A stretch of DNA of 11,837 nucleotides from a virus (lineage: Duplodnaviria; Heunggongvirae; Uroviricota; Caudoviricetes): IMG/VR virus record IMGVR_UViG_647533159_000005; one strand, written 5' to 3'. Position 1 is the first letter of the stretch; each line of letters opens with the position of its first letter. Shown here piece by piece: positions 3,001-6,000 of the stretch. Made by a program: the position numbers.

Positions 3001-6000
3001 GACGGAACGCGAAGCGCGTAACCGTTGCCCGTCCGGTTGTGTCGCTGTATTCGCCGCCCGTATTCGTCAGGAGGTGCGCCATGATTAACCTGTCACTTAC
3101 CGACCTTAACCGCATTCAGTTTCGTGAGAAATTCACCGGGCAGCTACTGGTCAATGTGGATAAAGGTCGCGTGGTGTGTAATTACCACCTGCCAGATGAA
3201 GCAATTGTCGCAACAAGGGAATCATTACAGGAACTCGCAGAACGTGCCGGAATGATTAACGCGAATATTCAGGGGGTGAGACATGTGCAATAACACCCGT
3301 CCGGACGCAGCTGCCGAAGCTATCAGAACGCTGATGCACGCGCTGATTGATATTTCATGCACGGCAGCAACCGCAGAAAAACACATTACCAGAGAGCCGG
3401 AATATACAGGGGCGATAATCCCGCATTCGCTGGCTTACGCACAGCTTACCGCTGATATGGCGCTGAATGAGGCTAAAGCCATCCTGATTGCTGATTGTGA
3501 AAATGGCGGGGGCGATTATGCGAAATAAACATGATATTGAAGACCTGGCATTTGAAGCCCTGCACTCTGCGAAAAAAATCAGGGAAGTCGTCAATATGTG
3601 GATGAACAGCCTTAGCACCGATAAATCCGATAGCAGAGAAGAAATTCTTATTTCTTTGTTGTTAGACCTGGCAAATACACAGGTTTCTCTGACATCTGAT
3701 ATTGAGCTCGCCGCTAAAAAGCTGCCTCTGGAGTAAAAAAACATGAAAAAGAAAAATTCTGGCTTTACTGCCAGCGGCCCCGCTCGGCCTGAAATCCGCC
3801 CCGACGATATTTTCAAAGATAAATACGGCGGACGAATAACGATAAAAACCGTTGACGATTTTCGTGTGACTTATATCCGCGAAGGTTATGCGCATCCCTG
3901 CGTGTCGTCTCATATGCGCTTTGAGAGTGAATTCACCCTGGTAAGCAAAGCACCACCAGCGAACTTAAGCGACATCGACAGAATCATGCGCGTTACAGGT
4001 ATGGAACGCATTAAGGCAGTACGTGAAATTATTCGTGAACGGGGAAAGGCAAAATGAAACTGGCACCGAACGTAAAACTGTTACCGAAAGATAAAGGCGA
4101 GGATGCAGTGATTTTTGCGGGGGATGACGCATACAGCCATGCAGAGCATTACATGCAGGGCGGAGAAGCCAGAAAGCGCGGCGACAAAATACCACCTGTT
4201 TATCTCGGACGGCGTGACCTGGGTAATCTGGAAAACCTGCGTATTGTGGATGAGGGTCGGTCACGCGCCATCGTCAGACGTGCCGGAAAACTGGATGACA
4301 AACTGGCGCTACAGATTGAAACCCTGCTGGCAGTGGCTGGTGTTAAAGAAGCCTGTTTTTGTGACGAGAACGGCGATTTACTGGAGGACTGGACACCACA
4401 GCTTGCCCGACTGAAAGACGAATACGAGCGCGGGGAAAGTCTGGTGTTGCCCTTAAAGAAAAAAGCCACAGGAAGCTATAGCGATGATGAATTAAAGCCC
4501 CGCGTTGAAAGCCGCGCCGATGGTGTTTTCTGGGTAACGCCAAAAGTTGACAAGCAGTCAGGCGAAATTATCCGGCCTGAGACGTGGTTATGTTCCCCGC
4601 TTGAACTACTGGGAACGGGGACAATCGGTAAAGAGCATTACCGCGTGATGCGCTGGAAAAAGCCACACAATTTCACGAATACAGCACCGGAAAGGCGCAC
4701 GCAGACGCGTTAAAAGATGCCTGGACAGAAAATCACGGGGCGGCGGGTCGTGAATGGGTTAAATGGCTGGCAGACCACCAGCAGGAGGCAAAGGACACGG
4801 TAAGGTCATGCCGTGAACGGTGGCGCAACCTGATACCGGAGAGCTACGGCGAGCAGGTACACCGCGTGGGTGAGCGTTTCGCCATACTGGAGGCCGCGCT
4901 TGTGCTTTCCGGTCATGTTACTGGCTGGGATGAGCAGGAATGCCGCGATGCCATTCAGCATAATTTTAATGCCTGGGTGAAGGAATTCGGCACGGGTAAC
5001 AGGGAGTTTAAACAGATGGTTGAACAGGCAGAGGCTTTTTTAGCGTCGTTCGGATTCAGCAGATACCTTCCGTGGCCCAACACCGACGAGCGTGATTTAC
5101 CGATTAAAGAGCTTGCCGGATACAGAAAGGGGAGTATCAGAAACGAAGATGACGAGTTTCGTTTTTACACGTTCCCGCATGTATTTGAGGGTGAGATAGC
5201 ACAGGGATTTAATCCGTCTCACTTTGCCCGCGCGTTGAGTGCTGCCGGAATGCTGGAAGCGGGTAACGATCGCCGTTACAAGAAAAAGGCGCTCGGCAGG
5301 ATTGGGGGGAAGCAGCATGTTTTTTACGTGCTGATGTTCCAGCCAGAAAGCGAAGAAGATTAATTTTTTCTCGCGTGTAGGGTGAAAATTTTGCGGGTTA
5401 TGCGGGTTATTTCTGTGGATAAATCAGTATCCATATGATTATTAAAGGAATGACAGGAAAATCGTAACCCGCAAAATACCAAAAATAACCCGCAAAACGG
5501 CAGTTATAACCCGCAAAAGTGCGATTATAACCCGCAGAATTTCACAGTATAGGGTGTAAACAAGCGTAACTATCAACGTTAAAACCGGAGAACAGACAGC
5601 ATGACAGCACAGATAGCGGCTTACGGGCGGCTGGTGGCTGACCCGCAGTTAAAGACCACCAGCAAAGGGACACAAATGGCGATGGCGAGTATGGCGGTTC
5701 CCCTGCCGTGCAACCAGGCCGATGACGGAACGGCGACGATGTGGTTATCCGTCCTAGCGTTTGGCAGACAGGCCGACGCACTGGCAAAGCACCACAAAGG
5801 CGAACTCGTGAGCGTGGCGGGTAACATGCAGGTAAGCCAGTGGACAGGCCAGAACGGCGAAACGCGGCAGGGCTGGCAGGTCATCGCAGACAGCGTAATC
5901 AGTGCGCGAACGGCGCGACCGGGCGGCAAAAAAGGTCAACAGGGCCAGGCTACTGACGCACTGAACAGGGCAAAACAACAGGCGGGAAATGATGACCCGT

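Follow-up and report, generated by a model that had tools for sequence, protein, structure and literature searches.

The DNA analysed here, IMG/VR virus record IMGVR_UViG_647533159_000005 (11,837 nucleotides, Caudoviricetes; hereafter the window, i.e. the whole stretch), carries at positions 5389-5539 an array of short repeats (iterons) arranged around an AT-rich core. We read this array as an origin of replication that belongs to a Gram-negative phage-inducible chromosomal island (PICI). In this island the replication gene, rep, has lost 814 bp, so that the origin most likely persists as an intact relic in a replication-defective island; we give this reading a probability of about 0.8. It is carried by four observations: which repeats are present and how they are laid out, what the intact Rep protein is homologous to, the constant distance of the array from the stop codon of rep, and the fact that the iteron sequence changes together with the C-terminal tail of Rep.

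The iteron array and its probable initiator

According to the original prediction, four direct iterons on one helical face, two inverted copies and an AT-rich core make up an iteron origin at 5389-5539, and these coordinates hold. A repeat finder recovers the four direct copies, TAACCCGCA(A/G)AA, with a spacing of exactly 21 bp (feature positions are collected in Table 1); as 21 bp equal two helical turns, their placement on the same face of the helix is correct. The two inverted 12-mer copies are likewise present (5389-5400 and 5398-5409). The conserved unit, however, is a 9-mer rather than a 12-mer: each of the six copies matches TAACCCGCA/TGCGGGTTA perfectly, the left 9-mers abut head-to-tail and share 3 nt when taken as 12-mers, and the AAA tail is restricted to the right-hand copies. 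With up to two mismatches allowed, the 12-mer has 9 matches in the window against 1.66 expected, a number reached by none of 200 dinucleotide shuffles, and the six matches with no or one mismatch all fall inside the cluster at 5389-5539. The array begins 25 nt past the TAA stop of the upstream rep frame. The AT-rich core was also rightly recognised; it spans 55 bp between the two iteron sets, with a GC content of 0.31 as compared with 0.50 for the whole window.

In its intact form, the upstream gene encodes a protein of 707 aa with DUF927 at residues 167-434 (Pfam E = 2.4e-46). This protein matches the staphylococcal 'Pathogenicity island protein' of PDB entry 8tch (E = 1.9e-15) and the SCCmec helicase Cch (PDB 5dgk, E = 0.0016), and by homology we regard it as a DUF927 helicase-initiator of the type of Cch and of the Rep proteins of Staphylococcus aureus pathogenicity islands (SaPIs). 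Origins of Gram-negative PICIs lie directly 3' of rep and consist of two iteron sets around an AT-rich region, and the rep-ori segment of the island EcCICFT073 drives plasmid replication and maintenance (Fillol-Salom et al. 2018, ISME J, PMC6092414). In SaPIs, the origin is located just downstream of rep and its AT-rich centre is flanked on either side by two or more iterons, the two sides pointing in opposite directions, while Rep is a self-loading helicase whose winged-helix C-terminal domain binds the iterons and sets specificity (Qiao et al. 2022, PMC9371898).

The window shares with EcCICFT073 the gene order (int, alpA, icd-like, DUF4222, rep, ori, in places a hypothetical gene, ssb, perC), an origin 3' of rep with two iteron sets and an AT-rich region, and a Rep that is related over its first ~130 residues. 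With SaPI origins it has in common a homologous helicase core (8tch), the location downstream of rep, opposed iterons around an AT-rich centre and C-terminal specificity. SaPI iterons are, however, penta- or hexanucleotides numbering 6-12 per origin, whereas the window has 9-mers, a left-hand pair and a right-hand set of four with a 21-bp phase, and in addition a DnaA box; the winged-helix fold, moreover, is established for the C-terminus of SaPI Rep and not for the window type. SaPI origins have reportedly also been described by Ubeda et al.

Two further systems invite comparison. The alpha protein of phage P4 is a satellite primase-helicase whose C-terminal part binds repeated short sites, and P4 needs a distant repeat cluster, crr. 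This second cluster resembles the second iteron module of relatives of the window, which adjoins the origin or stands 8-10 kb from it (see below); protein family and repeat sequence differ, and the window is without a second module. Iteron plasmids such as pSC101, P1, F, R6K and RK2 use winged-helix initiators of the RepA/pi type, which have no helicase activity and need DnaB to be loaded. They resemble the window in having direct repeats phased at roughly two turns of the helix, an AT-rich unwinding element and a DnaA box, but keep the iterons on one side of the unwinding element, whereas in the window these stand on both sides. An iteron plasmid origin (RepA/pi/TrfA) was rejected as an identification: the initiator is a DUF927 helicase, none of 72,556 plasmid records matches the origin sequence (nor does any entry of the GenBank phage collection), and all 143 matches in E. 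coli are chromosomal.

Constancy of the layout and coupling of iterons to the Rep tail

The layout was compared across two samples. A comparison of the intact Rep with one genome per species yielded 16 loci (55-76% identity) from Escherichia albertii, Citrobacter, Cedecea, Pantoea, Rahnella, Serratia, Yersinia, Pectobacterium and other hosts; 80 IMG/VR loci were found with a Rep alignment, and the loci considered total 100. Abutting inverted 9-mers at about +26/+35 from the rep stop, followed by an AT-rich stretch of roughly 55 bp, are present in 15 of the 16 protein-found loci, and direct copies stand at about +98/+109/+130/+151 in 15 of the 16. Two abutting inverted copies occur at +23 to +39 in loci of every iteron class, with a first-iteron offset of +23 to +30 in related loci. 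The right array is spaced 11/21/21 in most relatives, while the 21/21/21 spacing of the window recurs in 7 clusters from IMG/VR. The GC content of the core ranges from 0.15 to 0.34 in the 16 relatives, and a loosely conserved TATGAWTWWWAAAGGAAT motif is found in the core of several lineages. The gene after the array varies (ssb, a gene for a 116-aa hypothetical protein, or unrelated genes), and the array stays at the rep stop.

The repeat sequence itself is variable. Six repeat sequences are present among the 16 loci (TAACCCGCA, TAACCCAC, TGAACCACG, TGAACCAAC, TGAACCGRM and TGGGACAAG/TGGGATAAG), and the 100 loci fall into seven classes: TAACCCGCA (43 loci), TGAACCAAC (38), TGGGACAAS (8), TAACCCAC (6), TGAACCACG and TGGGATAAG (2 each) and TGAACCGRM (1). 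The 52 unique 75-residue Rep tails from these loci cluster exactly by iteron class, and no tail among the 100 loci is paired with two different iterons. Nearest to the window's tail are those of the TAACCCAC loci (61-72% identity), whose iteron differs by one base. Mosaic alleles are stronger evidence for the coupling than this class association. Between the Rep of E. albertii (L003) and the window type, identity is 94-100% for aa 151-550 but falls to 34-35% for aa 601-707, and the E. albertii iteron is unrelated; the Rep C-terminal tail and the origin were thus exchanged as one. Rep homology, gene order, the published layout, the constant place of the array when a gene other than ssb follows and this co-variation of tail and iteron bear out the PICI/SaPI-type placement and design that had been proposed from the window alone. 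Judged from these comparisons, we regard the origin as a new allele of the published PICI origin design; the TAACCCGCA iteron sequence is not in the supplements of PMC6092414, the alleles of Fig. 2a of that paper lying outside the comparison.

A consensus DnaA box lies in the core beside the left iterons and is a new point of the present analysis. At its position, a perfect TTWTNCACA is found in 19 of 26 unique TAACCCGCA-class cores as against 0.9% of shuffled cores, the variation falling mainly on the N position; in the cores of the other iteron classes there is no perfect box. Because the perfect box recurs at one spot across TAACCCGCA-class cores, host DnaA may assist the origins of this lineage.

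In an island with a working rep, initiation could proceed as follows. After induction by a helper phage and excision, the island Rep, a DUF927 self-loading helicase-initiator, would bind the 9-bp iterons, reading them through its C-terminal ~75 residues. Two abutting left copies would then face four right copies phased at two helical turns on one face of the helix, and Rep assemblies on both sides would distort and melt the 55-bp AT-rich core, probably helped by the DnaA box beside the left iterons. The helicase would load itself, and replication would go on with the island single-stranded DNA-binding protein (SSB) and host enzymes.

Many relatives possess a second iteron module, in which the 9-mer of the rep-adjacent origin at the respective locus is used again. 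Two to three copies at intervals of 21-22 bp come first, then an AT-rich stretch of about 86 bp, three abutting copies, a conserved GTTTTGYWTATATATAC and a gene start; the module lies immediately past the origin or at a distance of 8-10 kb in the same contig. Such modules could represent a Rep-controlled promoter, an element like crr of P4, or a second origin.

The window origin is also bracketed by a 14-nt direct repeat (GTGTAGGGTGAAAA / GTATAGGGTGTAAA). Kin of this flank motif (roughly ACATGYGAG plus an A/T run) stand 5' of the left iterons in L003-L017, including loci with unrelated iterons, and the right array is followed by a T-run and CTGGCTGG, or by a Chi site itself, in many loci. The flank elements are independent of the iteron specificity class.

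The broken rep gene and the status of the origin

The claim that the origin lies directly 3' of a replication gene stands as regards position, the array following the rep stop, but not as regards the gene, which is a deletion pseudogene in two fragments. The 5' fragment, in which no Pfam domain is found, and nt 1-612 of the intact gene of E. coli PSS-15 (L001 6055-8178) agree at 99.7% identity; between the 3' fragment and its counterpart at the 3' end of that gene, identity is 97.5%. The frame of the 3' fragment is open from 4632, is without an ATG start and differs from that of the 5' fragment. Window positions 3736-4665 correspond to 5737-6666 of the PSS-15 locus and positions 4651-5549 to 7466-8364, the two offsets differing by 814 bp. 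The missing 814 bp (1 mod 3) cause a frameshift and remove approximately aa 205-475, which include most of DUF927 and the invariant G353-K354-T355 P-loop. Since a single TGGAAAAAGCCA is left at the break and two are present in the intact gene, the loss is best explained as a microhomology deletion between the TGGAAAAAGCCA repeats. The junction occurs in none of 5426 complete E. coli genomes, and the frame-shifting deletion is a further new point of the present analysis.

No intact cognate rep accompanies the origin in the window. Because the P-loop and the ATPase core are deleted and the frame is shifted, the window's own rep product should be unable to fire the origin. Expression of the C-terminal fragment alone, as an iteron-binding competitor, was considered and dropped, because the frame has no ATG start and the GTG at 4866 is not preceded by an evident ribosome-binding site.

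Damage to rep is seen elsewhere too. The capsid-forming PICI of E. coli ETEC4090 (NZ_CP122620.1, L019 3102-4389) has an internal deletion of ~836 bp in the same DUF927 rep; this deletion is independent, with breakpoints that differ from those of the window, the gene is annotated as 'frameshifted', and the TAACCCGCA origin is intact. The rep reading frame is also truncated in L009, L013 and L017, and rep loss may be recurrent among these islands.

By descent, the origin at 5389-5539 belongs to the PICI/SaPI-type family, but the replicon in the window appears defective; since its own initiator is destroyed, the origin is most likely an orphaned relic. Several points weigh against the overall reading of the array as a PICI origin beside a broken rep. 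The only validated Gram-negative PICI origin, that of EcCICFT073, has a different iteron (TGTCTACC/GGTAGACA) in another arrangement, and it is served by a 584-aa Pri-Rep ('DNA primase family protein') that does not align with the DUF927 part and the tail of the window type. For the Rep C-terminal domain, likewise, no fold emerged: the Cch helix-turn-helix family HTH_56 matches it below threshold in Pfam (E = 0.0027; 4 of 12 members match), a PDB profile search with the domain returned chance-level matches only, and an AlphaFold2 model of the 165-aa C-terminal fragment from a 27-sequence alignment has a pLDDT of 53.6, too low to show a fold. The coupling of tail and iteron could partly reflect physical linkage and not function, and the lower nucleotide diversity (pi) of iterons (0.004) than of spacers (0.10) is biased, as the IMG/VR loci used for this contrast were chosen by exact iteron pattern. 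In relatives with a second module, which also has two sets around an AT-rich stretch, either module could be the site of firing. Finally, that Rep binds, melts and fires a TAACCCGCA origin is something we infer from sequence comparison.

As for Pri-Rep of EcCICFT073 (L090 32242-33996) and the DUF927 Rep of PSS-15, the two proteins have a common start, MKLAPNVK...IFAG.DA.SHA..., and then diverge completely, which suggests a common N-terminal module joined to different helicase and DNA-binding parts.

An orphaned origin might nevertheless still be in use, either through a Rep of the same specificity supplied in trans by a co-resident PICI or through host DnaA acting at its box, in which case the island would parasitise another satellite. 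In favour of this, the loss in rep has left the six iterons and the DnaA box undamaged, several DUF927 PICIs are often found in one E. coli genome (in up to 6 places), and the independent deletion in ETEC4090 has left the origin there intact as well. Against this, the sequences flanking the window's deletion are still 97.5-99.7% identical to intact alleles, so that the loss may be recent and may have left no time for the origin to decay, while in the ETEC4090 genome the sole origin of this type adjoins the broken rep and no donor of the same specificity is evident; we therefore consider continued use unlikely. A wider scheme strikes us as slightly less probable still: tail and origin would form an exchangeable cassette, with at least seven orthogonal 9-mer 'addresses' in enterobacterial PICIs, and rep-deleted islands would retain a perfect origin because they are replicated in trans, and/or the second module of the relatives would be a crr-like cis element needed for firing. 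If the trans part were true, another satellite with the same address in the same cell could act as donor, or host DnaA could act via the consensus box, and the island would be a parasite of a parasite; as regards the crr-like part, the window island has neither a second module nor a working Rep.

That the repeats form only a transcriptional operator array, at which Rep or another protein controls ssb and the genes beyond and no initiation takes place, is very improbable in our view. Iterons of many replicons do autoregulate as well, one weak sigma-70-like match (5450-5477, 9 of 12 positions) overlaps the first right iteron, and the second iteron module of relatives ends about 30 nt before a gene start. 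However, a scan of 5200-5700 for promoters and terminators gave nothing above shuffles (1 promoter against 0.7), the promoter-proximal second module is absent from the window, and inverted sets around an AT-rich core match validated origins. An operator dedicated to ssb, the alternative raised along with the original prediction, is further disfavoured because the array is fixed to the rep stop whatever gene follows. Integrase arm-type sites or a terminase pac/cos site would also be repeated short motifs on a mobile island, but this possibility can practically be dismissed and was rejected: the same rep-ori allele is combined with different integrases, integration sites and packaging modules, and the repeat sequence tracks the Rep tail instead. 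In E. coli this allele is found downstream of yejM at tRNA-Pro, beside rcnR and in yifB, with integrases that differ, and it is associated with a Nu1-type small terminase (TerS) in the window and with a P27-family TerS plus capsid genes in SM107.

The host island, its Chi sites and the meaning of the origin

The window is a Gram-negative PICI, because its gene content and gene order match annotated islands and EcCICFT073. It has an integrase, an alpA-type regulator, rep-ori and unidirectional genes, is without lysis or tail genes, and falls in the size range of about 10-15 kb. Synteny extends to the annotated islands of E. coli PSS-15 (~13 kb, next to tRNA-Pro), SM107 (a capsid-forming island), A36 (~14 kb, in yifB) and CFT073; the terminase homologue of A36 is on the opposite strand and frameshifted. 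The open reading frame (ORF) at 1985-3088 is probably not a real gene, as similarity to relatives is patchy there. Of the 5,426 complete E. coli genomes, 1,209 have chromosomal islands that match the region, 10 have the exact origin subtype of the window and 133 have its right-hand array. No RNA family from Rfam was found anywhere in the window.

Table 1. Positions of features in the window and, in the last row, of second iteron modules in related loci
Feature	Position	Strand	Remarks
P4-type integrase	1-1242		Pfam
alpA-like helix-turn-helix gene	1774-1980		inferred by collinearity with L001 3477-3683
367-aa GTG-start ORF	1985-3088		relatives have YlcI/YnfO and Icd-like genes there
DUF4222 gene	3743-4057		Pfam
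rep 5' fragment	4054-4713	+	aa 1-204 of the 707-aa protein, then out of frame until stop
Deletion junction	4654-4665	+	single TGGAAAAAGCCA; intact gene has two copies 814 bp apart
rep 3' fragment	4866-5363	+	C-terminal domain, aa 543-707 of the intact protein; TAA at 5361-5363
Left flank motif GTGTAGGGTGAAAA	5375-5388	+	14-nt direct repeat, recurs at 5547-5560
Left iteron set	5392-5409	-	two abutting TAACCCGCA copies, 5392-5400 and 5401-5409
AT-rich core, presumed duplex-melting site	5410-5464		GC 0.31; between the two iteron sets
Consensus DnaA box TTATCCACA	5414-5422	-	reads TGTGGATAA on the + strand; beside the left iterons
Right iteron set	5465-5536	+	four perfect TAACCCGCA at 5465, 5486, 5507 and 5528; 21-bp phase
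Right flank copy of the boundary motif, GTATAGGGTGTAAA	5547-5560	+	direct repeat and alignment
ssb	5601-6023	+	Pfam SSB, E = 3e-16; downstream of the origin, island replication module
ProQ/FinO gene	6060-6584		Pfam
PerC gene	6581-6868		Pfam
Nu1-type small terminase (TerS)	8056-8658		Pfam
K88-type fimbrial subunit gene	9188-9988		Pfam; standing alone
Second PerC-family gene	11529-11837		Pfam; cut by the window end
Chi sites	1163, 2222, 2254, 5630, 6444, 7518, 10615, 11066	+
Chi sites	1555, 3953, 4775, 5656, 7061, 7735, 10659, 10794	-
Second iteron module, examples	L028 5497-5644; L024 4045-4191; L004, L005, L007-L010, L012-L015 and L017 at +160 to +320 from the rep stop

Exact Chi octamers (GCTGGTGG) number 16 in the 11.8-kb window, 8 per strand, as against 0.35 expected, with this number reached in 0 of 200 shuffles; the pair at 5630/5656, just beyond the origin, is an inverted repeat. 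Related islands are similar (22 in 13.8 kb in A36, 17 in 13.5 kb in PSS-15 and 13 in 12.9 kb in SM107), and the fetched chromosomal flanks of related islands have none (0 in 9.3 kb for A36). Chi richness may shield island DNA in linear or concatemeric form against RecBCD. Lambdoid phages are of two kinds, those without Chi, which inhibit RecBCD, and those with many Chi sites (review, PMC8791490), and no report on the Chi richness of PICIs was found in the literature searched.

The conceptual gain from this origin is small, as the design has already been published for PICIs, and the island copy in the window is read as replication-defective. What the analysis provides is a precise annotation for a feature that RefSeq leaves unannotated in 143 of 143 E. 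coli occurrences. The seven pairs of Rep tail and 9-mer could help to decipher DNA recognition by DUF927 initiators, or serve in the design of orthogonal delivery vectors based on PICIs. The DnaA box, being specific to one lineage, suggests that a host initiator is recruited at some satellite origins even though the satellites encode a self-loading helicase.

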